A stretch of DNA of 64,000 nucleotides from the IMG/VR virus record IMGVR_UViG_3300028831_000155, positions 6,725-70,724 of that record; one strand, 5' to 3'. Shown in pieces: positions 7,554-57,504 of the stretch. Position 1 is the stretch's first letter; every line of letters begins with the position of its first letter. The position numbers and the translations under genes are program-made. The DNA comes from a virus. A model generated the notes under the pieces. That model was not told the DNA's origin, made no database searches, and saw only the letters and a program-made list of their open reading frames with translations.

Positions 7554-7574
7554 CATAAGTGCTACCCTACGCGC

Positions 7575-27573: not shown

Positions 27574-28896
27574 CTACGCAGTCAGCGCAGTGCTCTGCGG
27601 CTCCCTGATTGCAGCATCGAAGACTGCGGCCGCATCACTCCACCTGAATGTCTTGCGCACGTGCTCGATCCCCGCGCGGCCATAGCGCTTGCGGAAGCCG
27701 CTGTTCAGATACAGGTGCTCTATCGCCTCGGTGAAAGCGGGGATATCTGCGGCGAACATATCCTGTCCACCGGGCGCGGTGACCATGAAGCCGCCCTCGA
27801 TCAGCACGCCTCCGGGTCCAACCACCTCGGGAATGGATGACACGTTCTGAGCGATAACCGGCACGCCACAGGCCAGTGCCTCGCCGAGGGTGAGCCCGAA
27901 ACCTTCTCCGAACGAAGTCGTTACAAACAGGTCCGCGGCGTTGTAGAGCGCCACCAGATCGTTGTTGTCCCAGCCGGTCCAGTCGATGAAATCGGTCGGC
28001 AATTTGAAGCGCGGTGCGGTTTCCACGTCCCTCGTGAACAATTCCGGCATCTGCACGCCACCTGCCGCAGGGTCGCTGCCTGCACAATGGAAATGCGCGT
28101 ACACGTCATCGTGGCGCTGCATGACTGGCAGGATGGCCTTCCACGTCGAGGCGAAGTCCTTGCGCCACGAGTTCTTGTCCACTCGCAGGATCAGGAACGA
28201 ATCGGGCGGATAGCCAAACAGTTGCTTGGCTTCACGCTTGGAGGTGATCTTGCGGTCCCGCGACCAGATCGGCTGCTTGTCCGATACCGGATGGAAGACT
28301 TCAGTGTCGATGCCGTGATAGGCGAGGTCCGATCCGGGCATCTGGGCCTGCCCGAACTTGCTCATCGCGATCTGGTGCGATACCTCGAACGTCTCGCCGT
28401 TGACCTTGATCTGGCGCAGAGCATCCCAGCCCTTCGGCCCGTTCAGGCCATCGCGCGGCTGGTAGGTAATCAGCGTCCGGTCCCCGCTATCGAACAGGGT
28501 CTTGTATTTGAGCAGGACCAGTTCAGGATCGAACTTGTTGCGGAACAGGTAATGAGTGCAGATAAACGGGTCGTTGAAGATGACGACCGCGTGCGGCATG
28601 ACCTTGCCCAGCACCTCGACCACCCGCGTGTATCCGTAGATATCCGAGGGCTCGATGCTGCTCGCCATCATCAGGCTGACCTTGGATGGCTTGGAGTCGC
28701 CGCGATAGTTGACGCCTAGAACCGTGACCTCATGGCCGCGATCCACTAGCCGATTGCAAATCTCCTGCGTGGCCCTTCCGAACCCTGTAGACGCCCAATC
28801 TCCAAGCCACAGGACTCTAGCCATTCGGGAAGCAGCGACGGCAGGCACGCGCCCCGCCGTTCGCCAGTAGTTCCTCTGCCTGCTCTCGGCCCGCAT
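27574..28896 (-). CDS. GT-B glycosyltransferase (family 4-like)
   Basis: EGFGLTLGEALACGVPVIA (E-x7-E motif); 440 aa. Confidence 0.7.
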   Translation of the reverse strand: MRAESRQRNYWRTAGRVPAVAASRMARVLWLGDWASTGFGRATQEICNRLVDRGHEVTVLGVNYRGDSKPSKVSLMMASSIEPSDIYGYTRVVEVLGKVMPHAVVIFNDPFICTHYLFRNKFDPELVLLKYKTLFDSGDRTLITYQPRDGLNGPKGWDALRQIKVNGETFEVSHQIAMSKFGQAQMPGSDLAYHGIDTEVFHPVSDKQPIWSRDRKITSKREAKQLFGYPPDSFLILRVDKNSWRKDFASTWKAILPVMQRHDDVYAHFHCAGSDPAAGGVQMPELFTRDVETAPRFKLPTDFIDWTGWDNNDLVALYNAADLFVTTSFGEGFGLTLGEALACGVPVIAQNVSSIPEVVGPGGVLIEGGFMVTAPGGQDMFAADIPAFTEAIEHLYLNSGFRKRYGRAGIEHVRKTFRWSDAAAVFDAAIREPQSTALTA

Positions 28897-29328: not shown

Positions 29329-30903
29329 CTAACTGACAGGGTTGCTGTCGGTCTCGCTCCAAGGGCCGTAGCGTACATCCACGAAGGCGTCGAGACTGAA
29401 CGAGGTTTCGACTGGTGGCGCTGCCGCGCTGATCTCGGAGTCTAGCGTCAGGCTCGCGCTCTGGCTCGCGAATAGCACCGCATCTGCGGCAACGCTGGTC
29501 TGGGCGCTCCTGAGCAGGACCGAATCTAGGTTGAGCGCCGCAGCCTGCTCGGATTGAATGACCGCATCTAGGTCGAGATGCAGGACTGCCGAAGCACTGA
29601 TGAAGGCATCCAGCGTCAGGCTTGCTGTCTGCGGCGCGGACAGAACCGCATCTAGGTCGAGCGAAACCTGCTGGCTGCCTCGCAGCACTCCATCCAGCGT
29701 TAGGCTCTGTGATCGCGGCGCCTGTAGAACTGCGTCCAGACCCAGTGCTGCAGACTGGGTGACCTTGATAGTCGCATCCGCTGTCAGGCTTTGCGAATGG
29801 CTACGAGACAGAAGCGCATCGACCGTTAGTGTCGCCGAGTGCGTAACCCGCAGGACCGCATTCAGGCTGGCTGAGACGCTCTGGGTGCGGAGCGTGGTCG
29901 CATCTAGGCTCAGGCTGGCGGCTTGTGTCTTACGTACGACCGCATCTGCGACCAGCGAGGCTGACTGGGTTCCTTTGAGGACCGCGTTGAGCGGCAGCGA
30001 GGCAGATTGCGTCTTGGCAATAAGCGCATTCAGGCTGAGTGACGTGCTCTGGGTCCTGAGCAGCGTTGCATCTGCGGTGAGGCTGGCCGTCAGGGTCTTC
30101 TTGAGGACCGCATCAGCCGTCAGTGAGGCCGACTGGATGCTCTTGAGAATCGCGTCAGCGGCTAGCGAGGCCGACTGCGTGTCTTGCAGGATCGCGTCCG
30201 CTGTGAACGAGGTAATGACCGTCGCGCCGGGGCGGAAGACCGCCGCGACTATCGCGGCACCGGATAGGTTGGTGGTGACCGAGAAGGCCGCAACAGCAGT
30301 ATCGGCACCGGAGTTCGAGTTGGTGATGCCGTAGGCGAACGAGTAGTGGTTCTGACTCGATGTACCGTTGTTATTGCCAGCCGCAGTAACGGTGGTGACG
30401 TGGTTCGAGGTGAACGTGTCGTTCGGCGAGCGAGCCGTCGAGCGGCGGTCTGCCACCGCCATGAGCAATAGACAAGCACTGGCAGGATCGGCGCCAGACA
30501 GGGTGACTGTGGTTGGTGAGGCCGAGGCGGTGCCCGATCCATCTGCCACATCCAGCGAAGAAACCGCACCTGAGTACTCGGCCAGTTGCGCGGCGATGAC
30601 GCCAGAGGTGATGGCCGCGATAGTCGGAGCAGCATCAGAGCCGAGCGCGACCTTGGCATAGATCGTGGCCGAAGCGTTGGTGCCCGCTATCTGCTTGGCA
30701 ATGAACCAGCCATCAGGCGTGGTTGGCAGGGTGGCAACGCCCTCGACCGATACGAAGCAGACCAGCAGGTTGCCAGCGGTGCGGTTCTCGGATACTCCGA
30801 AAGTCGGGCTGACGGCATTACCCGCGGTGCCCTGCGTGGCAGTCCCGATGGTCCCAACCAATGCGATTGCCACTACACGCCTCCCCGCACGCGGCGATAC
30901 CAC
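29329..30903 (-). CDS. fibre protein with 14-aa tandem repeats (about 19 units)
   Basis: 524 aa; C-terminal half built from SASLTADAVLKxTQ-type units. Confidence 0.55.
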   Translation of the reverse strand: MVSPRAGRRVVAIALVGTIGTATQGTAGNAVSPTFGVSENRTAGNLLVCFVSVEGVATLPTTPDGWFIAKQIAGTNASATIYAKVALGSDAAPTIAAITSGVIAAQLAEYSGAVSSLDVADGSGTASASPTTVTLSGADPASACLLLMAVADRRSTARSPNDTFTSNHVTTVTAAGNNNGTSSQNHYSFAYGITNSNSGADTAVAAFSVTTNLSGAAIVAAVFRPGATVITSFTADAILQDTQSASLAADAILKSIQSASLTADAVLKKTLTASLTADATLLRTQSTSLSLNALIAKTQSASLPLNAVLKGTQSASLVADAVVRKTQAASLSLDATTLRTQSVSASLNAVLRVTHSATLTVDALLSRSHSQSLTADATIKVTQSAALGLDAVLQAPRSQSLTLDGVLRGSQQVSLDLDAVLSAPQTASLTLDAFISASAVLHLDLDAVIQSEQAAALNLDSVLLRSAQTSVAADAVLFASQSASLTLDSEISAAAPPVETSFSLDAFVDVRYGPWSETDSNPVS

Positions 30904-33900
30904 GTGCCAGCCGAGAGCGGGTCAACGATGGTCAGGCGCGCCGCGTTGCCGCAGTATGCGATTGGGACTCCACTGGGCGGGAATGGCTGCCACGTGGCTC
31001 CGTCAAAGTATTCCCAGTTGGCCGTATCAATAGTGGTCCGATAATCACGGTAATTCGGACCGTTGAAACTTGGTGTCTGATCGAGTTCGATCTCGAACTG
31101 CATGGGCAGTACCGAGTTCGGCATCTGGAAGGTCAGGACCGGCGTGCCGCTGATCGGGTCGCCGTCTGGCGGGCTGATCCACGTCGGCTGCCCAATCAGG
31201 ACGATGACCGCATCAAAAGTCAGGCTGCGGCGATGGACTCCGTAGTCGAACTCGGCGTAGATGAAATCGGCGGCCAACTCAGCGGTGATGGCGCTCGTGG
31301 TGAATTCGGCAGAAATCCCTGAGACTTCCAAGTCAGCGACGAGCGTCGCAACAGAGAGTTCGGCACTGATGGCCGCCGCAGAAATATCGGCGCTGATGTG
31401 GGAGGGATGAATCCCCGCGATCCACGCCGAGAGGGTTAGGCTCTTGCTCTCGGTGGCCCTGAGAACCGCGTCAGCGGTAAGTGCCTGATTGACTGCGGCG
31501 CTGATGATCGCATCGAGTCGCAGTGTGGCCTGCGTCGCACCACTGATCGTGGCATCCAGCGTGAAACTGGTGCTCTGGCTGCGGAAAACAATTGCGTCCG
31601 CAGTGAGAGAACGCTTCTGAACACGGAGCAGGACCGCATCGAGAGTGAGGGCAACGGTGGGCGGTACGAGGACCGCATCGAGCGTAAGAGAGGCACTTCG
31701 CGGGGACAGGATTACCGCATCGGCGGTGAAGGCACCTGTGCGCCCCTTGCGAAGCACCGCATCCGCCGTGAGGGCGGCGGAGAATGTTCTCTTTACAACG
31801 GCATCAACGGTGAGCGAAGCGCTTTGCGCTCGCCGCAGAACCGCGTCGAGTGTGAATGTAACAGATTGCGTCCGCTTTGCAATAGCGTCGAGCGTTAGGC
31901 TCGCGCTTTGGGTGCGGAACAGGACCGCATCGACCGTCAGGTTATGAGTGGCCGATGTTGAAATCGACGCATCTAGCGTCAGTGATGCACTGCGGCCTGC
32001 CTTTATGACCGCATCGGCATTCAGGCTGGCAGCCTGCGTGCGCAGGATTACCGCATCGGTAGTGAGAGCCGCAGATTCGGTCGCTCGAATGACCGCATCG
32101 AGTATCAAAGCGGCGTTTTGGGTCGCCTTTGTAACGGCGTCGAGGTTGAGTGCGGCGCTCTGGGTTCGGAGGAGTACCGCGTCGGTCGTTAGGGCCGCAG
32201 ACTCAGTGGCCTTGAGAACTGCGTCCAGACTGAAGCCGGTAACACCGACGCCTTGGACCCAAGCGTTGAGATTGAGGCTGGCGCTCTGCGTGACACGGAT
32301 GACCGCATCTAGGGTCAACCGTGGACTGATGACCGCATCGAGGCTCAGGCTCGCGGTCTCGGTTGTCTTGATTACGGCGTCGAGCGTGAAGCTCGGCATC
32401 AGTACCGCGTCGAGGCTTAGAGCAGCGGCCTGCGTTCGGAATAGAACCGCGTCTGCGGTCATCACCGCCGACTGGCCGCGCAGGATCACCGCATCCGCTG
32501 TGAGGGCGGCCGTCTGAGTGACACGCAGAATCGCGTCAGCAGTCAGGCTGGCGGCTTCGATACGCTCGATGACAGCATCGAGGGTTAGCGAGGCGCTTTC
32601 GGTCGCCTTCAGCACCGCGTCCGCTGTGAAAGCGGCGGTCTGCGTGTGCAGGATTACAGCGTCGAGGCTCAGGCTTGCCGATTGGGTCCTGAGCAGAACG
32701 CTATCGAGCGTGAGAGTCGCAGTCTGACTACGCAGGATGACTGCATCAGCCGTCAGCGCCGCGCTCTGAGTGACGCGCAGAACCGCGTTGAGGGTGAACG
32801 AGGCTTGCTGCGTACCGGCCGCGATAACCGCGTCGAGAGTGAACGAGGCGGTGTGACCGATCTGCATGGTCGCCACGTCGCTGGTCTGCGGCGATTCAGC
32901 AGTTGTTCGATTGAAACTCCCGGTGCGGGTTGCTACATCAGAAGTCAGCGGCGACTCAGCAGTGGTGCGACTGAAGGTTGCAGTGCGAGTCGCTACGTCG
33001 GAAGTGGTCGCACTCTCTGTGTCAGTCCTGTTGAATGTGCCGATGCGTGTAGCCGCGTCTGAAGTAGTCGGCGACTCCGAATCAGCCCTGTTGAAAGTGC
33101 CGATTCGCGTGGCTACGTCGCTGGTAGTCGGAGACTCAGATGTAGTACGACTGAATCCGACCTGCCGAGTGGCGACATCGGCCGTAGTCGGCGTCTCGGC
33201 CGTTGTGCGAGAGAAGGTGCCGGTACGTGTCGCTACGTCAGAACTTGTCGGCGACTCGTTCTCGTTGCGGCTTTCACCCTCGACCGCCAGCGCCGAGTCA
33301 GAGGTGGTGGGCGCCTCTGAGGTGGTGCGATTGAAGGTCCCGGTTCTGGTGGCTGAATCGGATGTAGTCGGTGATTCAGACGTGGACCGCGGGAAGCCGA
33401 CCGACCGTGTGGCTGCATCAGAAGTGGTCGGCGCTTCAGCGCTGGTGCGACTGAAGGTGCCGGTTCGAGTAGCAGCATCGGAGGTCAGCGGCGATTCACT
33501 GGTGGTGCGCGAGAACGTGCCCGTCCTCGTCGCCACGTCCGAGGTGGTCGGAGACTCACTGGTAGTTCGATGAAGACCGACTACACGGGTGGCCGCATCA
33601 CTGCTGGTAGGCGCTTCAGTGGTAGTGCGTGTGTAGCCCACCGACCGCGTAGCAACGTCTGAAGTTGTGAGCGCCTCCGCGGTAGTCCTAGAAAGAGTGG
33701 ACGTTCGGGTAGCAACATCAGAAATGGTCGGGGCTTCTGAAGTGGTGCGGCTGAACGTACCAGTGCGCGTCGCCGCATCAGAACTAGTCGGCGCTTCCGA
33801 GGTCGTTCTCTTGAACGCGCCTGTTCTGGTGGCTACATCGGCGGAAGTTGGGGCTTCGGCAGTAGTGCGAGAGAACGTACCTGTTCTGGTCGCAACATCG

Positions 33901-34079
33901 GAACTAGTCGGTGCCTCGGCTGCAGTACGGCCGAACGTACCAGTACGGGTGGCAACGTCTGAGGTGGTGGGCGCCTCTGTAGTAGTCGCCTGCGCGTTCT
34001 GGGGCCCGCTAACAGGCTGAGTTGGAGGCAGCCGTTGAATAAACGGCCCGCGGCGAAATAGGCCACGAGAACTCGCCAC
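30873..34079 (-). CDS. giant fibre protein: about 19 Ser/Thr-rich 20-aa repeats (APTSSDVATRTGTFSRTTAE) + about 38 14-aa repeats (SASLTLDAVLxRTQ) + C-terminal globular domain
   Basis: 1068 aa; 60-nt and 42-nt tandem DNA repeats are visible on both strands. Confidence 0.6.
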   Translation of the reverse strand: MASSRGLFRRGPFIQRLPPTQPVSGPQNAQATTTEAPTTSDVATRTGTFGRTAAEAPTSSDVATRTGTFSRTTAEAPTSADVATRTGAFKRTTSEAPTSSDAATRTGTFSRTTSEAPTISDVATRTSTLSRTTAEALTTSDVATRSVGYTRTTTEAPTSSDAATRVVGLHRTTSESPTTSDVATRTGTFSRTTSESPLTSDAATRTGTFSRTSAEAPTTSDAATRSVGFPRSTSESPTTSDSATRTGTFNRTTSEAPTTSDSALAVEGESRNENESPTSSDVATRTGTFSRTTAETPTTADVATRQVGFSRTTSESPTTSDVATRIGTFNRADSESPTTSDAATRIGTFNRTDTESATTSDVATRTATFSRTTAESPLTSDVATRTGSFNRTTAESPQTSDVATMQIGHTASFTLDAVIAAGTQQASFTLNAVLRVTQSAALTADAVILRSQTATLTLDSVLLRTQSASLSLDAVILHTQTAAFTADAVLKATESASLTLDAVIERIEAASLTADAILRVTQTAALTADAVILRGQSAVMTADAVLFRTQAAALSLDAVLMPSFTLDAVIKTTETASLSLDAVISPRLTLDAVIRVTQSASLNLNAWVQGVGVTGFSLDAVLKATESAALTTDAVLLRTQSAALNLDAVTKATQNAALILDAVIRATESAALTTDAVILRTQAASLNADAVIKAGRSASLTLDASISTSATHNLTVDAVLFRTQSASLTLDAIAKRTQSVTFTLDAVLRRAQSASLTVDAVVKRTFSAALTADAVLRKGRTGAFTADAVILSPRSASLTLDAVLVPPTVALTLDAVLLRVQKRSLTADAIVFRSQSTSFTLDATISGATQATLRLDAIISAAVNQALTADAVLRATESKSLTLSAWIAGIHPSHISADISAAAISAELSVATLVADLEVSGISAEFTTSAITAELAADFIYAEFDYGVHRRSLTFDAVIVLIGQPTWISPPDGDPISGTPVLTFQMPNSVLPMQFEIELDQTPSFNGPNYRDYRTTIDTANWEYFDGATWQPFPPSGVPIAYCGNAARLTIVDPLSAGTWYRRVRGGV

Positions 34080-36614: not shown

Positions 36615-37016
36615 TTAGAGGACCGTCACCTTGAGGTCGCAGCAGCCTGAGAAGCCGGGGCCGACCGGATTATCCAAGCGCGTTTCCCTTGGGCCGAGGA
36701 TCGGGTCGTTAGCACCCACCAGACAGTCGCCTCGGTAGTCACATGTCCCCCGAACCTCCCAGCGCCGTCCGTCGGTGCAGGAGTAGCGGACATAGCCTGC
36801 CCGCTCCTCCTCGATGAAGACGTAGGGATCAGCGGTCGGAATCACGGGCTGACGCTGAACTCGCAAGAGGCAATCGCGGCCCCGCCCTGATTCTTCACGA
36901 CCTTGACCTTGGCCGTTCCCGGAACGCTGAAGGCGATCATCCCGCCCGAGCCATCTCCGTTCGCATCGGTCACGAAACCGATCTCGTCCTTCTGTCGGTC
37001 GGAGTAGGTCGTCCAA
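36615..37016 (-). CDS. possible Cys-rich small protein (start uncertain)
   Basis: C-terminal 75 aa has 6 Cys (SCTDGRRWEVRGTCDYRGDCL...GCCDL); the 5' part overlaps the next gene in another frame. Confidence 0.25.
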   Translation of the reverse strand: MDDLLRPTEGRDRFRDRCERRWLGRDDRLQRSGNGQGQGREESGRGRDCLLRVQRQPVIPTADPYVFIEEERAGYVRYSCTDGRRWEVRGTCDYRGDCLVGANDPILGPRETRLDNPVGPGFSGCCDLKVTVL

Positions 37017-37177
37017 GCCACAACCGAGGTATCGGCAGGGCCGCCCGTCAGGGTGACGGTATAGAGCTGCTGCTGGCCAACCGGATCAGGTGAGACAGAG
37101 CAGGAGCCTGTGCCTGCCATAACGGTTCCTCCTGCGGATAGGGCGATGGCGAGTGAGAGCGCGATGAGGAGTTTCAT
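36842..37177 (-). CDS. secreted or lipoprotein-like protein
   Basis: Signal peptide MKLLIALSLAIALSAGGTVMAGTGSC from the ATG at 37177. Confidence 0.45.
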   Translation of the reverse strand: MKLLIALSLAIALSAGGTVMAGTGSCSVSPDPVGQQQLYTVTLTGGPADTSVVAWTTYSDRQKDEIGFVTDANGDGSGGMIAFSVPGTAKVKVVKNQGGAAIASCEFSVSP

Positions 37178-37256: not shown

Positions 37257-39089
37257 CTATTTCACCATTCCCGCCATAGAAGTGGCCGTGGCATCCGCGG
37301 CCTGATACGGCAAACCGAAGATGTCCTCGGTGGTCCGTAGCAAGCCGAAGTGATTGTATGCGGTGGCGTCGGTGAAAGCGGCCTTCGCCATGCTGCCCGC
37401 GAAGACGGTAAGCACCTGATTGCCCTGCGAGCCGTCGTCCTCATCCCACGTCAGGATCACCAGACACTTATCGACCGTGCAGGCGGGGCTATTGAGAATA
37501 GTGGGCACGTGCTGGCTCAACCATGTATCCCCAGTGCTTATCGAGCAGTCGTGAGTATCGTCGCAGTTATCGGGCTTGACGAAGGACCAGTTCGGAGTGG
37601 TCGCGGCGCTGGCTAGATCGTTGGTCAGGTTCGGGAACATCGGGACCACGTGCGTGTAACACAGGCTACCCGGTGCGGTGTTCTGCCACATATCATCGAA
37701 ATAGATCAACGGATCATGGTGCGCCCGGTAGGTGCCGGGATTGGTCAGCGTGCAGGGTGCAGGCATGTTCTCGAAATAGCCCTTGGCGCTCAGGCCCTTG
37801 GCTAGGAACTCATCGAGCAGGCTGGTCCCCGTGATGTGGCACGTGCTCGACGGATCACAGTCGGTGGTGATGCCGTGGTTCGACCCGGCATACAGATCGA
37901 GGTAATTGGGCAGCGACGGATGCATGATCGCGAAGTAGTTCGAGGCATGCGCCCATGTAGCCACCAGACCGTTGGTGTACGGCGTGGCGCTGGTTCCGAA
38001 CACCTCGCTGTATGAGTGGTTTTCCATCACGATCACGAAGACGTGCTTGGCGCCCGAACTAGGAGTGCTTGTAGGGGTGGGAGTGGGCGTGAAGGTGGAA
38101 CTCGGGCTTGCGGTTGGTGAGGGTGATGCCGTCAGGGTTGGTGTGGGAGTGGGCGTGAACGTGCCGGAGGCCGATGAGGTAGGCGTCGGGGTGGGAGTGC
38201 CGGTGGGATTCTCGACCGTGATCCAATCGACCTGAATCTCGGAGTTTCCAGAAGTTCCAGATGGGCATCCTGTCGCGTGGCACTCCTGCTGCAAGACGAC
38301 GTGCTTGAGGGTATCGGGCAGCGTGGTGCTGCTACCTGAATAGGTCCAGACCACGGTCCCGTCGATGCTCGCGGTCACGACATGGTTGAGCCGCGTGAAC
38401 TGCAGCGTGTGGAACTGGCTCAGGTCAACGCTATAGGCATGGGCGACCTGCTGATTAGTCGAGGAGTAGTGCAGGTACGTCGAGCAGCCAGTGGTTACGT
38501 CAGCCTCGCAGTAGTCTTCCTCACCGCCAGCGGGCCACGATGAGTCATCGTCCGGCCAGCGCATGGGAATGACGTAGTGGGCGCTGACGCCCGAGTCCAC
38601 GATGCGGAAGCGCAGGGTGACTCTCTGGTCAACCGTCGAGAAGCCGTTGAGCCGCATGCCGCCCGTGTACCAAGCCGCCCCGCAGTTCCCAGAGGGCAAG
38701 TATGACTCTAGGAGGTGGAGGTAGCCACCCGTAACGAAGTCCTGCGAGGGTGCGGCACAGTTATGGGCATTGCTCCCGTAGGGGCCGTTGTAGAGACCCC
38801 AGTGGCTAGGTATCCCGCCGCTGTTGAACTCGTCGTCTACGACTAGGGACCAGCCGTTCGATGGTGATGGGCTGGGCGACGGTGATGCCGTGAGCGTAGG
38901 AGAGGCGGTAGGTGACGCCGTAACCGAAGGTGTGGGTGTCGGTGTCAAAGAGGCTGTCGGTGTAGGGGTAACGCAATGCGGGTTGCTCGGATGGAGTTGA
39001 CAAAAGTCTGGCGGCCTTGCCGCTACCGAAGATGTAAAGCTGATGACCAACACCACGACGGCGATGATCGAGAGGGCTGCTCGGGCCAC
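37257..39089 (-). CDS. secreted two-domain enzyme: GH16-like glucanase/lectin domain + phosphoesterase (PLC/acid phosphatase family) domain joined by Pro/Thr linkers
   Basis: Signal peptide; WSLVVDDEFNSGG...W and EEDYCE (ExDxxE) fit the GH16 pattern; KHVFVIVMENHSYSEVFG matches the phosphoesterase family N-motif; TPTPTPT linkers. Confidence 0.55.
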   Translation of the reverse strand: MARAALSIIAVVVLVISFTSSVAARPPDFCQLHPSNPHCVTPTPTASLTPTPTPSVTASPTASPTLTASPSPSPSPSNGWSLVVDDEFNSGGIPSHWGLYNGPYGSNAHNCAAPSQDFVTGGYLHLLESYLPSGNCGAAWYTGGMRLNGFSTVDQRVTLRFRIVDSGVSAHYVIPMRWPDDDSSWPAGGEEDYCEADVTTGCSTYLHYSSTNQQVAHAYSVDLSQFHTLQFTRLNHVVTASIDGTVVWTYSGSSTTLPDTLKHVVLQQECHATGCPSGTSGNSEIQVDWITVENPTGTPTPTPTSSASGTFTPTPTPTLTASPSPTASPSSTFTPTPTPTSTPSSGAKHVFVIVMENHSYSEVFGTSATPYTNGLVATWAHASNYFAIMHPSLPNYLDLYAGSNHGITTDCDPSSTCHITGTSLLDEFLAKGLSAKGYFENMPAPCTLTNPGTYRAHHDPLIYFDDMWQNTAPGSLCYTHVVPMFPNLTNDLASAATTPNWSFVKPDNCDDTHDCSISTGDTWLSQHVPTILNSPACTVDKCLVILTWDEDDGSQGNQVLTVFAGSMAKAAFTDATAYNHFGLLRTTEDIFGLPYQAADATATSMAGMVK

Positions 39090-39102: not shown

Positions 39103-39381
39103 TCACGGTGGGCCGTCCTCACTTATGGATGGGTGGGTAGGTGGTTCTACGGGCGAAGTAGTGGAATCCGCCACGGTCACGGCTTTCTCAACGCCTGCAA
39201 AGACTGCGGCAAGGATGCCGAGCGTGAAGGTTTGCACGGCGTGCCTGATGTCGATAAAGCCGGTGATTGCCCCAGAGGCATTCACCGCCACAGTATACAG
39301 CGCGACCTTGGTAAAGCGTTTCGCGGCGAGTTTACGGGCTAATGCCAGATCGCCTTGGAGGAGCAGGCGAGGTGACTTCAC
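39103..39381 (-). CDS. membrane protein (lysis-associated?)
   Basis: 92 aa with a hydrophobic core (ITGFIDIRHAVQTFTLGILAAVFAGV). Confidence 0.35.
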   Translation of the reverse strand: MKSPRLLLQGDLALARKLAAKRFTKVALYTVAVNASGAITGFIDIRHAVQTFTLGILAAVFAGVEKAVTVADSTTSPVEPPTHPSISEDGPP

Positions 39382-39695
39382 TTTCTCGCTTTGCGGCCCG
39401 CCATGTTGGCAACAAAATCGCCGCCATCAGATGCCTTGGAGGCTGTGCCGTAGATCGCAAGGAAGGCTAGAAATGCCGCAAACACGTTCTCCACGTTAGG
39501 CGTGGCGCCACTTCCCAGCGCAGCAAGGATCACGAACAAGGCTGAGATGGCAGCCAGCACCAAGTTTCGCACTTGGGCCGTACTGGGAATGCTGGGGACG
39601 ATGGACTGAAGATAGCCCCAGATCAGTCCCACAATGGTCGCTGCGGCGCCTACTCCGGCCGCGGTCCAGATACTCTGCAGGTCGAAACTCGGCAC
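39378..39695 (-). CDS. holin-like membrane protein
   Basis: 105 aa with 3 predicted TM helices and a charged C-tail (RKARK); immediately downstream of the peptidase gene. Confidence 0.45.
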   Translation of the reverse strand: MPSFDLQSIWTAAGVGAAATIVGLIWGYLQSIVPSIPSTAQVRNLVLAAISALFVILAALGSGATPNVENVFAAFLAFLAIYGTASKASDGGDFVANMAGRKARK

Positions 39696-39704
39696 GTCTA
39701 TCTC

Positions 39705-40460
39705 CTAGATACGAGTAAGAGTGAATGGTCCAGATTTGCCAGAGATGAGGTAATAGCCCTCGTAATACCCAGCCTGAATCAAGTAGTAGCCGGGTAGAGT
39801 GCTGGTCGCGGTCCCGGCTCCGCTGGCCCTAGCCCAATATCCACTCTTGCTGCCGGTGATGGCGCGGGTATAGCGAGCGATATGGAAGCCAGTCACGGTG
39901 CCGGGGCCGACCGTAACCTTGAAGGTGCCGGTCGGAGACGGCGCTGGTGCGGGCCGGATCAGCGATGAGCCAGCGTACACGCCGCCAGTCACGTACTGCT
40001 CAGGATTGTGGAACAGGCTGACCCCGTAACTATTGACCGTGCGGCAGGCAGTGTGCTTGTGCGGTCCGGTGGCGACCCCAGTGGCGCCTTCATAGCCAAG
40101 CAGTTGCCCGCGTTTGACGCTCTGGCCACGGCTGACCGCAGCGGAATTCAGGTGGCAGAAGGTGTAGTACATCCCGCCGTAAATCTTCACGTCCACGATG
40201 ATGCCGCCACCAGCGAAAGTGCCGGGGTTCGGCGCCCAGCCCTCGTACTGGACCACGCCTGCCTCCATCGCGTACACCGGGGTGCCTAGTCCGTCAGACC
40301 AGTCGGTGCCTGCGTGGTAGTGCTGCGCATAGGAAGAACCGTAGTACTGGCTGAAGGCGCAGGTCTGAACGCCAACATGCCAGTAGGCGTATTCGAGGTA
40401 ATTGGACTGATTGCCAAAATGCTGGGTCAGAATGCCCAGAGGCAGCAGCAGGCCACTCAC
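39705..40460 (-). CDS. M23-family peptidase (endolysin-type) with a C-terminal domain
   Basis: HYHAGTDW (HxxxD) and GPHKH (HxH) zinc-ligand motifs. Confidence 0.65.
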   Translation of the reverse strand: MSGLLLPLGILTQHFGNQSNYLEYAYWHVGVQTCAFSQYYGSSYAQHYHAGTDWSDGLGTPVYAMEAGVVQYEGWAPNPGTFAGGGIIVDVKIYGGMYYTFCHLNSAAVSRGQSVKRGQLLGYEGATGVATGPHKHTACRTVNSYGVSLFHNPEQYVTGGVYAGSSLIRPAPAPSPTGTFKVTVGPGTVTGFHIARYTRAITGSKSGYWARASGAGTATSTLPGYYLIQAGYYEGYYLISGKSGPFTLTRI

Positions 40461-40723: not shown

Positions 40724-41148
40724 TAGCCTCTCATCAGCGAATCAATGTCGTGGTCATCACACACCAGACCATCCTGCGTGATCCACACTCCATCACGCGT
40801 CCCGTCCGCTCGCTTGGCACCGATGCCGTAGGCCACCCATTCGATTCCTTGGAACGGGCCATTCAGATCGGTGGTGTGGCGCTTGTAGTAGAAGGGTTGG
40901 TCGTCTTCGTAGACCTCTATCCCAAACACCACCGTGTCATTCGACTTGCGGCACAGATACCAGCGCGACCGAACGCCGCGTATCCAGTCCTTCCAAATCT
41001 GCGCCCAGCCCGGATAGTCGAGGTCGATCTTGGTGTTCTGCGTGTTCTCACGGACGATGAACAGGAAATATGGGTTGTCGCCTACCCATTCGTGATGAAC
41101 CTCGCCCACGGCCACATCGGCGGCTTGAACGCTCTCATGTACGGTCAC
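40723..41148 (-). CDS. hypothetical protein
   Basis: 141 aa, W-rich. Confidence 0.4.
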   Translation of the reverse strand: MTVHESVQAADVAVGEVHHEWVGDNPYFLFIVRENTQNTKIDLDYPGWAQIWKDWIRGVRSRWYLCRKSNDTVVFGIEVYEDDQPFYYKRHTTDLNGPFQGIEWVAYGIGAKRADGTRDGVWITQDGLVCDDHDIDSLMRG

Positions 41149-41996
41149 TGCTTGAGCCTGTGGAATGCCTGCAGCGGGGTGACCGTGCTCAGTCCCATGC
41201 GGTTATTCGCCTTGCGGCGCTCCTTGACGACTGCCTTGTCACGCAGGGCCAGTTCCACTAGAAAGTCACGCTCGGTGATCTCCCGCTCTGCGACATGCCC
41301 GATCTTGATGCGGGTGTCCACGAAGATGTGACAGCCCGCGGCCTTGGCATCCTGACAGAATCGCAGGTCCTCTCCGAGTAGACCCTGCCACTTGAAGAAC
41401 TCGGGTGGCCCAGTCCTCATCCGATCTTCGAGAGAGGGGATCGGGTTCCCGGCGATCTTCTCGAACACGCGCTTATGAATCACGGCGAAGGCGAGGCCGG
41501 TGGCGTCCACCTCGGCAATGTCGGCATCCCATGACTCGACGTAGTTGTAGAGCCCCGCATCGGCGGACTCACGCATGTACATGGTCGGCTGGAACGGCTC
41601 GGAGCGCCGGAAGCACAGAGCGCCCAGCATGTCGAGATCGTATTCCTCGCGGGTCGCGATCAGCCTACCCACCGCGTCGGGCTGCCACACCATATCGTCG
41701 TCAATGAAACAAATCCAATCGCCCTCAAGCCTCTGCACTGCCTCATTACGGGCCAGTGTCAGTACTGAGGAGCCGTGGATAATCAGCGGCCCTTTGACGT
41801 AGTACTCCGGCTTGAGCCATGTCCAGTCTGTACCGACCAGTGACATGACTGAGGAAGCTGGCATGCGATCCAGCATCGGGATCGCCACCGTGCCCGCGCA
41901 GACGCCGCCGCCACCCTTGCGAGTCGAGTAGATCATGTGCTCGCCGTCAGGATTTGGCGTTAGCGGTTGCTTCACCGTGATATCATTGTAGGCCAC
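41145..41996 (-). CDS. GT-A glycosyltransferase (family 2-like)
   Basis: ICFIDDDMVWQPD (DxD motif); 283 aa. Confidence 0.65.
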   Translation of the reverse strand: MAYNDITVKQPLTPNPDGEHMIYSTRKGGGGVCAGTVAIPMLDRMPASSVMSLVGTDWTWLKPEYYVKGPLIIHGSSVLTLARNEAVQRLEGDWICFIDDDMVWQPDAVGRLIATREEYDLDMLGALCFRRSEPFQPTMYMRESADAGLYNYVESWDADIAEVDATGLAFAVIHKRVFEKIAGNPIPSLEDRMRTGPPEFFKWQGLLGEDLRFCQDAKAAGCHIFVDTRIKIGHVAEREITERDFLVELALRDKAVVKERRKANNRMGLSTVTPLQAFHRLKQ

Positions 41997-42065: not shown

Positions 42066-42986
42066 CTAAGCTGCGTGGGCACGGCTTAGGCTGTCCATCA
42101 CTTTCTGAAGCCCTTGATAAAGGGTCACTCGCGGTCGGTAGTATTGCAGCATCTCACTCGGGTCCGCATAGCGCGCATGCACACCTTCGGGCTTCGATTC
42201 ATCGGTCACGATCTTCGGCTTGTAGCCCGCGATTTCTGCAGCGGCCTTGGCGATCTCAACGAAGGTGACTGGCACCCCAGTCCCGATGTTCATGGGCACG
42301 TAGCCCAGCACGCCCCGGCTCAGGCGTACCACGGTGGCTGCCACGAGGTCTTTGACATGGATGAAGTCACGGCTCTGGTGGCCCGAGCCCCAGACCTGTA
42401 GCGGGTCCTCATGGTTCAAGGCCCGTTGGCAGATGGCGGTGACCGGATAGGAAGCCGCCTGTCCCTCGCCGTAGCCCGAGAAGGGCCGCAGCACCAGCGT
42501 GTTGAGGCCGAACTTCTCCGACGCCATCCACGCTAGATACTCGGCCATCATCTTCTCGACGCCGTACCACTCGTCAGCCCGAGCCCACTCGGTCTGGGAG
42601 GGATGGAACATGGACTCCGCCAGTTTCATGCCCTTGTCGGACTGGTACTTGATGCCGTACACCGCCGAGGACGAGGGATAGACGGCAACCTTGGTATGCC
42701 CGGCCGCCCAAGAGAAGAAGGCCGCATCCAATCCCGCGTTACCGACCTGCTGGAACGGGTCGTTCTCGATCACTTCGCGGCCACCGACCACCGCCGCGAA
42801 ATGCAGGGCGATGTCGAACACGCGCCCGGAAGTGAATATGTCCATGGCGTCGATGTGCAGCACGCCCTGTGGGCGTTCCTTGGCAGTATCGACTGCCACC
42901 ACTTGGGTATTCGGCTGTGAATGGTAGTGATCGAGGAAGTGGCGACCCAAGAAGCCCGCCGCTCCCGTAATCAGGACTTGGCTCAC
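42066..42986 (-). CDS. NAD-dependent sugar epimerase/dehydratase (SDR family)
   Basis: ITGAAGFLGRHF (GxxGxxG) and YGVEK (YxxxK) motifs. Confidence 0.7.
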   Translation of the reverse strand: MSQVLITGAAGFLGRHFLDHYHSQPNTQVVAVDTAKERPQGVLHIDAMDIFTSGRVFDIALHFAAVVGGREVIENDPFQQVGNAGLDAAFFSWAAGHTKVAVYPSSSAVYGIKYQSDKGMKLAESMFHPSQTEWARADEWYGVEKMMAEYLAWMASEKFGLNTLVLRPFSGYGEGQAASYPVTAICQRALNHEDPLQVWGSGHQSRDFIHVKDLVAATVVRLSRGVLGYVPMNIGTGVPVTFVEIAKAAAEIAGYKPKIVTDESKPEGVHARYADPSEMLQYYRPRVTLYQGLQKVMDSLSRAHAA

Positions 42987-44202: not shown

Positions 44203-45114
44203 CTACTTCAACGCCGATTCGTAGACCTTCACCAGTTTGGCCGCGACTTTGGCTTCATCGTGGTACTTCTCGACATGGAAGCGACCCAGAGCACCGAAAT
44301 GCTTGCGTAGAACCGGATCGGCGGCCATCTCACTGATTCTCTGCCGCAATCGGCTCTGATCGGTGAGGAGAAATGGCAGATACCCGTACACGTAATTCAT
44401 CAACATGAGGATCGCCGGGTCAAACGCGCCAGAAATGACCGGAATCCCCATCGCCATCGCTTCGATGGCCGAGAGGGCATAGCCGATGTGGAGTTGATCG
44501 TAAAAGATATCTGCTTGGGACTTGCGCTGGAGACACTCGTCGTGGCTGGTCCACTCGATGAGGTCCACGTCGAGGTCGAGTTCTGCCACTGCACCCAGAA
44601 AGTCATCAGTGTTCTTGACTCCTCTGTGTGTCGGTGAATGAGCGATCTTCAGTCTGCGGCGCTTGGCTAACGACCGCATGGCCGCCAGTCTAGGGATATC
44701 GACCGGATTGGGGAGCCATTCTGCGTCAGGGTCGATCAAGGTCAGGTCGATAGTCGAGACGATGTGCTGAACCCCGTATTCCTTGGTGGTTCGCAGAATC
44801 TCGGCGGTGTTATCGACTCGGAACTCGGTGCCGTGTGAGTGAAACACCATCGGCTTGTCACGCCAGTTCGGAAACTCACCGGCCGCAGACCAGCGCTCCA
44901 TGATATGGATTAGGTCGGCTTCATCCCAGAGCCGCAATAATTCCTCTGTAACCGGCTCACCCTTGGGCCAGAAGATGTCCTGCTCGTAGCCGATGTAGTT
45001 CTGATGCCGCGTCACCGAACGGGCAGTCCAGTCGGTGTATCGCTCCAAGGCGTGCTTCAGAGCGATCCCGACGCCACCCACATCCTCGTGGTCGCTGAGG
45101 ATGAGTGATCTCAT
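44203..45114 (-). CDS. GT-B-type glycosyltransferase
   Basis: LSAIEAMAMGIPVISG resembles the GT4 C-terminal motif. Confidence 0.5.
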   Translation of the reverse strand: MRSLILSDHEDVGGVGIALKHALERYTDWTARSVTRHQNYIGYEQDIFWPKGEPVTEELLRLWDEADLIHIMERWSAAGEFPNWRDKPMVFHSHGTEFRVDNTAEILRTTKEYGVQHIVSTIDLTLIDPDAEWLPNPVDIPRLAAMRSLAKRRRLKIAHSPTHRGVKNTDDFLGAVAELDLDVDLIEWTSHDECLQRKSQADIFYDQLHIGYALSAIEAMAMGIPVISGAFDPAILMLMNYVYGYLPFLLTDQSRLRQRISEMAADPVLRKHFGALGRFHVEKYHDEAKVAAKLVKVYESALK

Positions 45115-45761
45115 TCCACGCGGCGACCCACTCCGATCACCATATCTGGGTAGGGTCCCATGTTGAAGTGGAACGCTTCTTCAAGGCGGTGCCCGTTGGC
45201 CGAGAACCAGTTGTAGAAATCAGAGAGTTGATAGGCCCACCGATGACCCGGCTCGTCATCCGAGGCATCTCCGACCAGCGGATGGCCGATGACGCTCCAT
45301 CGGGCTCGCGGCATCCAATCTGCGGCAACCTTGAGTGGATCGGTGAGGTGCTCAAGCACCTCAGTCAGGATCAGAACGTCGGAATCCCTCGGCTCGACAT
45401 CCTCGACCTTGGACAGGATGAAGTCGAGGTCCGGCCATCGTTCGGCGCAGATGGTCTGAGCCACCGGCACCACGTCCACACCATGGACCTCATGGCCGTT
45501 GCTGAACGGGCCAGAGATATCCGCCGAGCCACAGCCCAATTCCCAAATGGTGCCCGGAAACTCCACCGCGTCGAGGCAGCGCCACACCAGTCCGCGGGCC
45601 ACCGCGATCCGCCACGGCTGAGTCTCTACGAATAGCGGAGCGTCATTGCGGTCAAGATGAACCTGTACCACGTCGAGTTCGGGAGGTTTGGCAAGCCGCA
45701 TCAGGCGGCCAGTATGCGCTTGAGGGTCTCCACATCCTTGGCAAATCCGTTTGCCATCCAT
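45111..45761 (-). CDS. class I SAM-dependent methyltransferase
   Basis: IWELGCGSADIS (motif I) and acidic motif II VLILTEVLEH. Confidence 0.55.
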   Translation of the reverse strand: MDGKRICQGCGDPQAHTGRLMRLAKPPELDVVQVHLDRNDAPLFVETQPWRIAVARGLVWRCLDAVEFPGTIWELGCGSADISGPFSNGHEVHGVDVVPVAQTICAERWPDLDFILSKVEDVEPRDSDVLILTEVLEHLTDPLKVAADWMPRARWSVIGHPLVGDASDDEPGHRWAYQLSDFYNWFSANGHRLEEAFHFNMGPYPDMVIGVGRRVE

Positions 45762-56613: not shown

Positions 56614-57504
56614 TCACTTGGCCGGGATAACCACGCCAGTGCTGCTGCCCCAACACGAGAATCCGGCAGGCAGAGCGTAGCCCTTACTGATTGCATCGTT
56701 GAGCAGATCAAAGCATTTCGACACCAGCACGTTGGGGTCCTTGGATACCGATGCGGCCAGTTCGGCATTGGCGTTGGCCTGTGCCTGAGCCGTCTTGACG
56801 GCCTGCTGTGCAATGCGGGTCTGGGCGATCTGAGCCTGTAGTGCATTCAGACGGGCCTGCGTGCTGGTGTCAAAGTGCAGAACCGGGATGAACACGCTCA
56901 AGACTTCGACCTGAACGCCAATCTGGGCCTGCATCTGGGCAAGGACCGAGGCGGCCAACGAGCTGAGTGTCGGCGCTGCCGAGTTACCGCTGCTATCGAC
57001 CAGCAGCGGATCGTAGTCAGCCAGCACTGCATTCAAGTCGGTCGCCAGTTCCCGAGTGACGAGCGAGTTACGCACGTTGTCGAAATCGCGGTAGTCCTGA
57101 AACAACTCGGGTGCGGCCGATTCTCTGATCCGCCAGCGAATGGTCACGTCAGTGCAGGCCACGATCTGGTGCGCAATGCGAGTAGGTACGCACGAGTTCT
57201 GGTTAGAGGCGTCGCGCAAGTCGGTCTGCACCGCCGCATCCATCTCGGTCACATCTTCCCAAGGCGCCTTCCAATGCAGGCCGTTATCCAACACGCCGAC
57301 TGGACGCGCGAAGGCGGTCACGATGCCGACTTCCTTGGTACCGACGATGACGATGGTCGAGAACAGGATGGCTATCAGCGCCAACAGCAGGCTGCCGATG
57401 CCAGCGGCGATGAGTCCGCCGCGCTCCTGAACATCAACAACGGCTGCGAAGAACAGCGCGATGGACACCAATATCAGTACAAGGCCAAGAATGAAAGGAA
57501 TCAT
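56614..57504 (-). CDS. SPFH/band-7 (prohibitin-like) membrane protein
   Basis: N-terminal TM helices; TKEVGIVTAFARPVGVLDNGLHWKAPW matches the SPFH core. Confidence 0.65.
   Translation of the reverse strand: MIPFILGLVLILVSIALFFAAVVDVQERGGLIAAGIGSLLLALIAILFSTIVIVGTKEVGIVTAFARPVGVLDNGLHWKAPWEDVTEMDAAVQTDLRDASNQNSCVPTRIAHQIVACTDVTIRWRIRESAAPELFQDYRDFDNVRNSLVTRELATDLNAVLADYDPLLVDSSGNSAAPTLSSLAASVLAQMQAQIGVQVEVLSVFIPVLHFDTSTQARLNALQAQIAQTRIAQQAVKTAQAQANANAELAASVSKDPNVLVSKCFDLLNDAISKGYALPAGFSCWGSSTGVVIPAK

Follow-up and report, generated by a model that had tools for sequence, protein, structure and literature searches.

What a tailed phage would gain from a secreted protein that joins a glycan-hydrolase fold to a phosphoesterase, encoded immediately behind its lysis genes, is the question raised by a soil-virus sequence that we analyzed as a single stretch of 64,000 nucleotides (the window). 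The window is a tailed-phage genome, as shown by its large terminase, portal, and major head protein, and the host is probably a member of the Chloroflexota, a phylum generally regarded as monoderm. The gene of interest lies on the minus strand at 37257..39089, has a GTG start codon with an AGGAG ribosome-binding site a few bases 5′ of it, and encodes 610 aa plus a stop codon. Its product is composed, in order, of a Sec-type signal peptide, a Cys loop, a TP-rich linker, a GH16-fold domain, a second TP-rich linker, and a minimal PF04185 phosphoesterase. Based on these sequence features and on structural models, we predict that the product is an exported, modular, bifunctional hydrolase. A first-pass annotation, made from the DNA alone, had described a secreted two-domain protein joined by TPTPTP linkers, and this description is borne out: the signal peptide by hydropathy, the two domains by Pfam and fold matching, and the linkers by TPTPTP at aa 49, 298, 312, and 334.

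The first 24 residues (MARAALSIIAVVVLVISFTSSVAA; 39018..39089, minus strand), which precede the dipeptide RP, have a charged n-region, a hydrophobic core, and an AxA-like end, and Kyte-Doolittle hydropathy is at least 1.6 across aa 1-27; we read this N-terminus as a predicted Sec signal peptide. It is followed by a Cys-loop leader with a C-x8-C spacing (aa 25-40, RPPDFCQLHPSNPHCV; 38970..39017, minus strand), which was recognized by comparison with homologues and is present in 4/4 phage-borne copies and in 0/258 of the other homologues (262 retrieved in all). A C-x6-C variant of the same loop is found on an unrelated cargo protein of a sister phage. As judged from these sequences, the long N-terminal region of the bacterial proteins has been swapped in the phage copies for a short, phage-only leader. 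The two catalytic domains are set apart by Thr/Pro/Ser-rich linkers that comprise aa 41-77 (38859..38969) and aa 297-348 (38046..38201), both on the minus strand. Matches to three PHROG families (phrog_15511, phrog_38031, and the "transglycosylase" phrog_12661) were rejected as they cover only aa 278-349, which is essentially low-complexity TP linker.

The region between the linkers (aa 78-296; 38202..38858, minus strand) is predicted to be a divergent GH16 endo-glycanase with a β-jelly-roll fold, an assignment that draws on an AlphaFold model, PDB fold matches, and homology to members of PF00722. The model is of high quality (pLDDT 94.8, pTM 0.90), and all 50 of its top 50 PDB fold matches are GH16 enzymes, mostly laminarinases, with TM-scores of 0.70-0.80 and E values down to 4.5e-14. 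The domain is only about 20 % identical to solved GH16 structures and is missed by Pfam's own model: PF00722 gives no match even at E <= 10, where the sole Pfam match is a weak one to Laminin_G_2. An NCBIfam search with the domain gave zero matches, and a single-sequence search of the PDB found nothing. The connection is made by its relatives. Five proteins retrieved by phmmer at E = 6e-13 to 4e-10 (P0228, P0241, P0249, P0255, and P0261) each score above the PF00722 gathering threshold in the region of the phmmer match, and PF00722 is matched by 24/99 representatives of the domain family. In addition, a profile of the homologues pairs WPAGGEEDYCE with WPACGEIDIME, the catalytic strand in GH16 enzymes of known structure (GEIDIME, PDB 5nbo). 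The profile searches that the first-pass annotation had called for were productive in part: PF04185 was matched, and GH16 was reached through the homologue profile and relatives while the Pfam GH16 model stayed silent.

The ExDxxE motif that had been noticed in the sequence is present as E190-E-D192-Y-C-E195 (38505..38522, minus strand) and supports the GH16-type reading of the fold. E190 is invariant in both alignments of the domain, one of 35 close homologues and one of 99 representatives; D192 and E195 are invariant in the former and at least 90 % conserved in the latter. We predict from sequence and model that E190 and E195 act as nucleophile and acid/base with D192 as helper. The endo-β-1,3(4)-glucanases of GH16 (PF00722), such as the Thermotoga laminarinases (3azx, 4dfs) and SCLam (6xof), share both the fold and, residue for residue, the ExDxxE strand. 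The domain also contains two conserved Cys pairs. Its clade is small (559 cluster representatives among 1.84 billion) and, in species-representative genomes, is found in soil Chloroflexota and Actinomycetota metagenome-assembled genomes (MAGs).

The C-terminal domain (aa 349-610; 37260..38045, minus strand) is a minimal PF04185 phosphoesterase of about 260 aa that runs to the C-terminus of the protein. The C-terminal half of the full protein matches PF04185 at E = 3.6e-25 (89.3 bits vs a cutoff of 23), in agreement with the earlier placement in the family of AcpA and phospholipase C, and the isolated domain scores 94.4 bits. A profile match to AcpA (2d1g) at E = 1.6e-4 and a model with a pLDDT of 85.4 support the assignment; the leading PDB fold matches of the model are NPC4, RePLC, PlcN, PlcH, and AcpA (TM-scores 0.70-0.79). 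The catalytic residues are E356, N357, S392 (within HPSLPNY), H457/H458, H513, D549, and E550, and all are invariant among 27 homologues except H457, which varies. The first-pass annotation had named absent catalytic residues as one finding that would speak against it; they are present on alignment in both domains. The roles of the PF04185 active-site residues have been established by mutagenesis in SapM (PMC6635428), and we predict by sequence comparison that S392 is the nucleophile, that E356, N357, D549, and E550 form the metal site, and that H458 and H513 are the substrate histidines. These seven residues from E356 to E550, excluding H457, correspond, as judged from published residue roles and motif spacing, to E59/N60/S95/H160/H204/D238/E239 of SapM. 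From E to S the two proteins share a spacing of 36, and from S to H it is 66 in the fusion protein and 65 in SapM.

Is this domain then a phospholipase C? In this family the nucleophile is a serine in AcpA and SapM and a threonine (Thr158) in the phospholipase C NPC4, which also requires an extra C-terminal domain (PMC6635428, PMC9837106). Because the fusion protein has the serine, consists of the core of about 260 aa, lacks the phospholipase C-terminal domain, and scores 13.1 bits against the equivalog model for phosphocholine-specific phospholipase C (PC-PLC, TIGR03396; cutoff 580.25), its sequence looks like that of a SapM/AcpA-type phosphatase rather than a phospholipase C. SapM and AcpA are broad phosphomonoesterases (PMC6635428), and several homologues of our domain have been named "phosphatidylinositol-3-phosphatase" or "acid phosphatase" by JGI. 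The size of the domain and its predicted secretion are further similarities to SapM. Unlike SapM and AcpA, the domain is phage encoded and fused to a glycanase via a TP linker, and it has a PSL motif where SapM has PSE.

The gene neighborhood places this enzyme among the late genes. The upstream genes, all on the minus strand, begin with an M23 metallo-endopeptidase (39705..40460; Pfam PF01551, E = 1.7e-17, and PHROG endolysin and endopeptidase families) that lacks a signal peptide and is likely the endolysin. Next come genes for a membrane protein of 105 aa (39378..39695), which has a basic C-terminus and two to three hydrophobic segments, and for a protein of 92 aa with a single such segment (39103..39381), both described by hydropathy. 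The 105-aa protein is holin-like by anatomy only, and neither protein matches a holin family in Pfam or PHROG. The same-strand gaps from the M23 gene through the 105-aa and 92-aa genes to the fusion gene are 9, -4 (a 4-nt overlap), and 13 nt, with a further gap of 10 nt; the location claimed at the outset, directly after M23 peptidase and holin-like genes, is correct to within those 13 nt. Promoter- and terminator-like sites around the fusion gene are at or below the expectation from shuffled sequence, and the base composition of the gene is that of the phage backbone (GC 0.604, GC3 0.750). The fusion gene is packed into one late transcription unit with the M23 endolysin and holin-like genes.

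Comparison with a sister phage (TerL 72 % and M23 60 % identical), in which the M23 gene is followed by a PHROG holin (E = 3.7e-10), shows that the position of the fusion gene is a cargo slot. The sister phage has an unrelated secreted protein of 337 aa in its place, and neither this protein nor a second cargo protein of 173 aa has a Pfam match or a convincing PHROG match. The slot is flanked by conserved genes, with differing secreted proteins inside it between the sister phages. Its downstream boundary is the gene for a small, Cys-bounded, β-rich protein that hydropathy predicts to be secreted (36842..37177, minus strand; 111 aa from an internal ATG) and that is weakly homologous to a 90-aa protein of the sister phage (E = 8e-5).

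The enzyme recurs in unrelated phages, with the GH16 module present on three other phage contigs. One of these (L051), a temperate element, has the module joined to PF04185, and the fusion gene is flanked by the integrase on one side and the lysis genes on the other, with a Phage_holin_4_1-like protein encoded three genes away. In the other two, the partner of the module is a calcineurin-type metallophosphoesterase, which is not homologous to PF04185, and the module and leader are 70-73 % identical to ours; the gene follows a giant repeat protein in L002 and lies upstream of the portal module in L053, and no recognized lysis gene is nearby in either. Fusions of PF04185 to canonical GH16 in the reverse order also occur (P0104, L039). 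The pairing of one GH16 module with two non-homologous phosphoesterases, together with the reverse-order fusions, argues that cleavage of a glycan and of a phosphate ester is a selected combination. A look-up of contigs by the exact sequence of the fusion protein gave no record, tblastn with both domains against 50,697 deposited phage genomes gave zero matches, and scans of IMG/VR yielded no confirmed relative with the GH16 profile and a single distant PF04185 match with the full fusion protein. The IMG/VR matches to PF04185 (L036-L044; 32-39 % identity) are large, multi-domain, secreted proteins, some of which may lie in the host flanks of prophages.

We tentatively prefer to view the fusion protein as a late, exported enzyme whose substrate is a phosphate-bearing glycopolymer of the envelope, a reading that we hold to be plausible but somewhat short of probable. 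According to this proposal, Sec would export the protein during late infection into the wall zone of a monoderm host, where both catalytic heads would work on one polymer, perhaps a secondary cell-wall polysaccharide, a sheath, or EPS; the GH16 head would cleave a β-linked glycan backbone, and the phosphoesterase head would strip phosphate ester substituents or linkages. Loosening of this layer outside the peptidoglycan would allow the cytoplasmic M23 endopeptidase, once released by the holin, to complete lysis, and the progeny would escape. The fusion protein would be a "third-step" exit enzyme in role, like LysB or the spanins elsewhere and unrelated to both, and related phages would exchange the gene in its slot as its specificity is fitted to the envelope type of the host. 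Differing secreted proteins in the slot of sister phages fit such envelope-type-specific exit enzymes.

Like lysB of mycobacteriophages, the fusion gene stands right after endolysin and holin-like genes, and its product, as for the spanins, would act outside the peptidoglycan. Unlike LysB and the spanins, it has unrelated folds and chemistry (GH16 and PF04185 in place of a cutinase-like α/β-hydrolase) and a Sec signal peptide, and it is not conserved in the sister phage. The tail-associated GDPD phosphodiesterases of Gram-positive phages (PMC10194240) offer a second parallel, as they are likewise phage phosphoesterases proposed to act on a phosphate-containing wall glycopolymer, wall teichoic acid; these enzymes differ in fold and, as virion components, function at entry, whereas the fusion protein is predicted to be exported from the infected cell.

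Co-expression with the lysis genes, the proximity to a holin in L051, and an SLH wall-anchoring domain on one cellular family member favor the exit-enzyme reading, to a degree that still leaves it tentative. Against it, the closest known relative lacks the gene at this position, the copies in L002 and L053 lie away from recognized lysis genes, and the family includes a chromosomal homologue as well as neighbors and fusion partners that look like extracellular nutrient acquisition. We are also cautious about the chemistry, since SapM and AcpA are phosphomonoesterases and the reading assumes that the domain can act as a diesterase on a wall polymer. In a recent survey of soil viruses (bioRxiv 10.1101/2024.12.20.629349), 133 viral genes were annotated as GH16, and for 30 % of these a holin or spanin was no more than three ORFs away; the same survey states that a lysis role has not been reported for GH16 in viruses.

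The cellular relatives bear on the strongest competing explanation, that of a nutrient-scavenging moron or auxiliary metabolic gene (AMG), which we consider possible though rather doubtful. A host-derived exoenzyme would raise the supply of carbon, and especially of phosphate, for the infected cell or lysogen: GH16 would open environmental β-glucans or necromass glycopolymers, the phosphatase would free orthophosphate for phage DNA synthesis, and adjacency to the lysis genes would reflect an insertion hot-spot for cargo. The closest relatives of the fusion are secreted enzymes of soil Chloroflexota, from which, by sequence, the gene was most likely captured. P0002-P0006 carry the same GH16-PF04185 fusion, with identities of 64-73 %, and P0005, a homologue 68 % identical to ours and the only one of these whose context could be read, lies on an ordinary bacterial chromosome; the GH16-like module is multi-copy in soil Chloroflexota MAGs. 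The pairing, which had at first been called unusual, is not: glycanase-phosphoesterase fusions occur in several architectures in bacteria and phages. Among other PF04185 homologues, CBM96, GH5, and GH99-like modules serve as fusion partners, and PKD and fn3 modules also occur in fusions, as in biomass-degrading exoenzymes; the protein most similar to the C-terminal domain (85 % identity) is encoded next to a polyphosphate kinase 2 (PPK2) and an ABC transporter. Variable presence and position of the gene between phages, including its absence from the sister phage, the location in L051, which is a classic one for conversion genes, the recruitment of two phosphoesterase folds that are both typical of secreted phosphatases, and the usual treatment of soil-viral GH16 genes as AMG candidates point in the same direction.

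Scavenging sits less easily with a gene tightly packed into the late structural and lysis operon, with neither an above-chance promoter or terminator nor a shift in composition. The time for any payoff would be short just before lysis unless the latent period is long, and the window ORFs that were searched for an integrase yielded none. The phage-only leader, which is present in all phage copies and common to other phage cargo, is also not explained by the mere acquisition of a host nutrient enzyme. Reported soil-viral glycoside hydrolase AMGs (GH16 in the Global Soil Virus Atlas and a validated GH5 endomannanase) are likewise host-like genes on soil phages; unlike them, the GH16 domain described here is divergent, hidden from standard Pfam annotation, fused to a phosphatase, and equipped with a phage-specific secretion leader. 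In bacteria, the gene order around the GH16-like module is conserved and includes a PF13480 acetyltransferase together with several secreted proteins or lipoproteins; as these neighborhoods contain no polymerase- or flippase-like membrane proteins, they do not point to a substrate. CBM96, a frequent partner of PF04185 homologues, has been characterized only as alginate binding (PMC9971899), from which we draw no inference for the fusion enzyme.

A receptor-destroying or superinfection-exclusion enzyme, which would trim a phosphate-bearing receptor glycan before lysis so that infected cells and debris stop adsorbing phage and trapping progeny, seems to us unlikely. The predicted signal peptide would bring the enzyme to the cell surface in time, the differences in slot cargo between sister phages resemble the variation of receptor-related functions, and the phages carry other glycan-modifying genes (a GT2, a second glycosyltransferase, an epimerase, and a methyltransferase in the window and a polysaccharide pyruvyl-transferase in L002); however, exclusion genes are usually early or prophage-expressed while this gene is in a late operon, and these folds are present in no known exclusion system. 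We regard as very improbable the two roles offered by the first-pass annotation, namely a LysB-like enzyme hydrolyzing phospholipid and glucan of an outer lipid envelope, which has in its favor the phospholipases C within PF04185, the NPC, PlcN, and PlcH structures at the top of the fold search, and a lysB-like gene position, yet conflicts with the Ser392 nucleophile, the minimal domain without the phospholipase C-terminal extension, the 13 bits against a cutoff of 580, the lack of a cutinase-like or α/β-hydrolase fold, and likely monoderm hosts, and is further weakened because the sister-phage slot holds an unrelated secreted protein and the gene lies elsewhere in other phages; and a virion-associated depolymerase, with which a predicted, cleavable Sec signal peptide is incompatible, as it would remove the protein from the cytoplasm, the site of virion assembly, and for which the protein has neither a virion-attachment domain nor a β-helix, its PHROG matches being restricted to the linker.

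Almost nothing is known about phage lysis of and exit from Chloroflexota, a soil phylum that is abundant, poorly cultured, and unusual in its envelope. The fusion gene provides a concrete, expressible candidate, with two well-understood catalytic folds, intact active sites, and obvious mutant controls. New here are the phage-only Cys-loop leader, the GH16 module in three other phage contigs, and the differing secreted protein in the slot of the sister phage. The leader could help to find more secreted phage effectors in metagenomes. For surveys of AMGs in soil viruses the locus is a caution, as its GH16 domain is invisible to Pfam and its location and leader suggest a core viral role over carbon cycling. 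That two unrelated phosphoesterases have convergently been paired with the module points to a phosphate-bearing glycan as substrate, and the enzyme could reveal an uncharacterized wall polymer of the host. More speculatively, and with considerable doubt, we suggest that phages of monoderm soil Chloroflexota may have a new class of exported "third-step" exit enzymes, in which the phage leader (signal peptide, Cys loop, and TP linker) would serve to take exchangeable catalytic bodies to the wall zone, most commonly GH16 plus phosphoesterase, which would detach or depolymerize a phosphate-linked secondary wall or sheath glycopolymer. If this is true, the occurrence of two phosphoesterase folds, PF04185 and calcineurin-type, beside one GH16 module would mean that phosphate-ester cleavage is itself essential.

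Our analyses show that the protein encoded at 37257..39089 (minus strand) is an exported bifunctional enzyme that joins a GH16 glycanase to a SapM/AcpA-type phosphoesterase, both with intact active sites, and that it is co-encoded with lysis genes. The ORF has a GTG start with AGGAG a few bases 5' of it, and the 610-aa product is predicted to begin with a Sec-type signal peptide (aa 1–24; basic n-region, hydrophobic core with Kyte–Doolittle values of at least 1.6 over aa 1–27, VAA end). This peptide is followed by a Cys loop with two bounding cysteines (RPPDFCQLHPSNPHCV; aa 25–40, positions 38970–39017) and by two globular domains (aa 78–296 and aa 349–610), with Thr/Pro/Ser linkers at aa 41–77 and aa 297–348 and four copies of TPTPTP in the protein. 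The composition of the ORF is that of the phage backbone (GC 0.604, GC3 0.750), and promoter- and terminator-like sites in its region do not exceed shuffle expectation.

The window is a tailed-phage genome that encodes a large terminase (49741–51294), a portal (48339–49736), and a major head protein (24399–25721; phrog_752), all on the minus strand. The first-pass annotation placed the ORF beside lysis genes, and this holds: directly 5' of it on the same strand are genes for an M23 metallopeptidase (39705–40460; PF01551, E = 1.7e-17, with further matches to endolysin and endopeptidase PHROGs) and for two small proteins, one of 105 aa with two to three hydrophobic segments (39378–39695) and one of 92 aa with a single such segment, the successive intergenic gaps being 9, −4, and 13 nt; the next downstream gene follows the ORF after 10 nt. 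The location of the lysis genes between the portal and head genes is an unusual module order, and the adjacent genes at 24399–25721 and 25722–27458 (minus strand) both match major-head-protein PHROGs (phrog_752, and phrog_617 plus phrog_16160, respectively).

The N-terminal domain is a divergent member of GH16. Neither the Pfam GH16 model, even at E ≤ 10, nor an NCBIfam search recognizes it, and a profile of 35 homologues matches solved GH16 chains weakly (best E = 0.0023); these matches are centred exactly on the catalytic strand (WPAGGEEDYCE in the window protein and WPACGEIDIME in a solved GH16). The AlphaFold model (pLDDT 94.8, pTM 0.90) retrieves GH16 enzymes, mostly laminarinases, as all of its top 50 PDB matches (E down to 4.5e-14, TM-scores 0.70–0.80). 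Across the 35 close homologues, E190, D192, and E195 are all invariant; across 99 cluster representatives, E190 remains invariant, and conservation of D192 and E195 is 90% or higher. When 1.84 billion representatives were searched exhaustively with phmmer, just 559 relatives were found at E ≤ 1e-3; PF00722 is passed by 24 of the 99 examined representatives, and in five short single-domain relatives it covers the very region aligned with the window domain. Given the agreement of profile, model, conservation, and relatives, we assign the domain, in which the ExDxxE motif is intact, to a small and divergent sub-clade of GH16. The GH16-type call made at first reading therefore stands on fold, motif, and PF00722-bearing relatives, without direct profile recognition.

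At the C-terminus lies a minimal PF04185 phosphoesterase domain of the SapM/AcpA type, in keeping with the family (phospholipase C/AcpA) named at first reading. It matches PF04185 (E = 3.6e-25), and a 27-homologue profile matches Francisella AcpA (PDB 2d1g; E = 1.6e-4) with the active-site segments within the alignment. The structural model (pLDDT 85.4) resembles plant and fungal non-specific phospholipases C, PlcN, PlcH, and AcpA (TM-scores 0.70–0.79). Mutagenesis of SapM identified E59, N60, S95 (the nucleophile), H160, H204, D238, and E239 as essential (PMC6635428); the counterparts in the window protein, E356, N357, S392, H458, H513, D549, and E550, are all invariant in the homologue alignment and near-identically spaced (E to S, 36 residues in both; S to H, 65 in SapM and 66 in the window protein). 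In contrast, the phospholipase C NPC4 has a Thr158 nucleophile and requires an extra C-terminal domain (PMC9837106), whereas the window protein has a Ser nucleophile and ends at the core domain. Given these differences, a PC-PLC equivalog score of 13 bits (cutoff 580), and the JGI names of several homologues ("phosphatidylinositol-3-phosphatase" or "acid phosphatase"), phosphatase activity is favored and the phospholipase reading disfavored.

Both folds are known families, and their fusion already exists in bacteria, so that the pairing is real but not confined to phage. Metagenomic proteins carry the two domains both apart and joined, with complete fusions (P0002–P0006) at 64–73% identity to the window protein; the gene for one, P0005, lies in a plain bacterial chromosome beside UvrD, PBP transpeptidase, MoxR, and transglutaminase genes. 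Among species-representative genomes, the GH16-like module occurs chiefly in soil Chloroflexota MAGs (identity up to 68%), often in several copies per genome, and Actinomycetota copies are more distant. From this distribution and the bacterial fusions, we infer that the host is probably a soil Chloroflexota bacterium and that a genome of this type is the likeliest source of the captured gene. For the C-terminal domain, the nearest relative, at 85% identity, has polyphosphate kinase 2 and ABC transporter genes as neighbors, and cellular relatives are fused to carbohydrate-related modules (CBM96, GH5, GH99-like, PKD, and in one case SLH). Two Chloroflexota genomes (L048, 10010–13684; L049, 10119–12531) share a syntenic gene set 3' of the GH16-like gene, which encodes one or two acetyltransferases of the PF13480 type (FemAB/CelD-like), a lipoprotein-like protein of 428 aa, and secreted proteins of 705–748 aa.

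The same GH16 module is found in three further phage contexts. L051, a temperate element that carries an integrase (PF00589), encodes the full-length GH16–PF04185 homologue P0004 (67% identity), after which come proteins of 105 and 223 aa and then a Phage_holin_4_1-like protein (E = 1.7e-4; 22.1 bits, marginally below the 22.2-bit cutoff). L002, a 121-kb phage-like contig whose sole other match to the window is weak (26%, between a methyltransferase-domain gene and the window GT2), encodes P0012; this protein shares 73% identity with the window protein over the stretch from signal peptide through Cys loop and linker to GH16 module, and its C-terminal half consists of a metallophosphoesterase of the calcineurin type (PF00149; 25.6 bits, cutoff 21.5) that is non-homologous to PF04185. 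P0013 has the same architecture as P0012, and its gene lies upstream of the L053 portal, which is 47% identical to the window portal. Reverse-order fusions of PF04185 with GH16 or GH16-like domains occur in P0104 and in an L039 protein. Given these PF04185, PF00149, and reverse-order fusions, glycan-cutting and phosphate-ester-cutting activities have been paired repeatedly from non-homologous parts, which argues that the two heads are functionally coupled, with one substrate or task shared between them.

Among 262 retrieved homologues, the Cys-loop leader is present only in the window protein, P0004, P0012, and P0013, all phage-borne, and absent from the other 258; bacterial fusions have N-terminal extensions in its place, with the GH16 module starting at aa 185–222. 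The loop is either C-x8-C ([KR]Px[DN]FCxxHPxNPxC) or C-x6-C (NCHATHxC). This phage-only secretion leader, made up of signal peptide, short Cys loop, and TP linker, precedes differing catalytic bodies (window, 38970–39017; L002, 10001–11869; L053, 94–1995; L051, 2267–4033; L047, 7054–8067). L047 is the nearest IMG/VR relative of the window phage (TerL 72% and M23 60% identical), and synteny extends over the epimerase, GT2, two small genes, and M23. There, M23 is followed by a 94-aa PHROG holin (6773–7057; phrog_1299, E = 3.7e-10), a 337-aa secreted protein of unknown fold (7054–8067) with the other leader version (AKNCHATHTCPPPTPT, as in P0004), and a small protein weakly homologous to the product of the window's downstream gene (E = 8e-5). 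The slot order is therefore M23 and holin(s), exchangeable secreted cargo, and a small conserved protein. Given that the L047 holin is unrelated to the window's 105-aa and 92-aa proteins while the flanking M23 proteins are 60% identical, the lysis cassette is mosaic. Further along, L047 encodes a protein of 173 aa (8345–8866, plus strand) that has a hydrophobic, signal-like stretch at its N-terminus and that neither Pfam nor PHROG matches; its CMEMGHALGLGDY segment recalls small zinc metalloproteases, albeit with another residue in place of the first His.

Several other genes deserve mention. GT2, NAD-dependent epimerase/dehydratase, methyltransferase, and second glycosyltransferase genes (41145–41996, 42066–42986, 45111–45761, and 27574–28896, all minus strand) lie amid the structural and lysis genes; such embedded glycan-modifying genes suggest virion glycosylation or host-surface modification. 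L002, too, encodes a polysaccharide pyruvyl-transferase. A 1068-aa window protein (30873–34079, minus strand) has two repeat systems, ~20-aa TSDVATRTGTFSRTTxExP units (60-nt period, TRF) and SASLTLDAVLxxTQ-type units, and L002 encodes a 1978-aa protein with GQAQADIKxT repeats just 5' of its GH16 gene; both may be fibre or decoration proteins. A 189-aa protein with a CAP/cysteine-rich secretory protein domain (8086–8655, minus strand; PF00188, E = 2.6e-6) may be another exported phage protein. The genome also encodes a 296-aa SPFH/Band-7 domain protein (56614–57504, minus strand; PF01145, E = 9.7e-20), and ARAGORN reports a tRNA-Thr (anticodon AGT; 15890–15977, plus strand) inside and antisense to a 978-aa ORF (13116–16052); this tRNA call could be spurious or could mark an overlapping gene.

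We class the window protein as a phage accessory hydrolase or moron. A tblastn search of 50,697 deposited phage genomes gave no match for either domain, giant eukaryotic viruses are the sole source of the PF04185 fold in the BFVD viral structure library, and a recent soil-viral CAZyme survey lists GH16 with "no reported lysis role" (bioRxiv 10.1101/2024.12.20.629349). In a limited literature search, we found no description of a convergent GH16–phosphoesterase pairing in phages or of a phage-only leader. We tentatively favor a role in lysis, in which Sec would export the protein late in infection and the enzyme would attack a glycopolymer that bears phosphate and belongs to the envelope of the host itself, for example a secondary wall polysaccharide, a sheath, or EPS. 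The main rival, a nutrient-scavenging moron or AMG supplying phosphate and carbon, accords with the host origin, patchy distribution, and variable position of the gene and with the exoenzyme-like fusions of cellular homologues; however, the packing of the gene in a late operon and its phage-specific leader count against it, and we consider it somewhat less likely. A receptor-destroying or exclusion role is possible at a low probability, and the phospholipase/outer-membrane or virion-depolymerase readings raised at first pass are, even jointly, very unlikely. Under the favored lysis role, attack on the envelope would aid the holin-released M23 endopeptidase and particle exit. In this third-step exit role the window protein would resemble LysB and the spanins, to which it is unrelated, and the function would vary with the type of host envelope.
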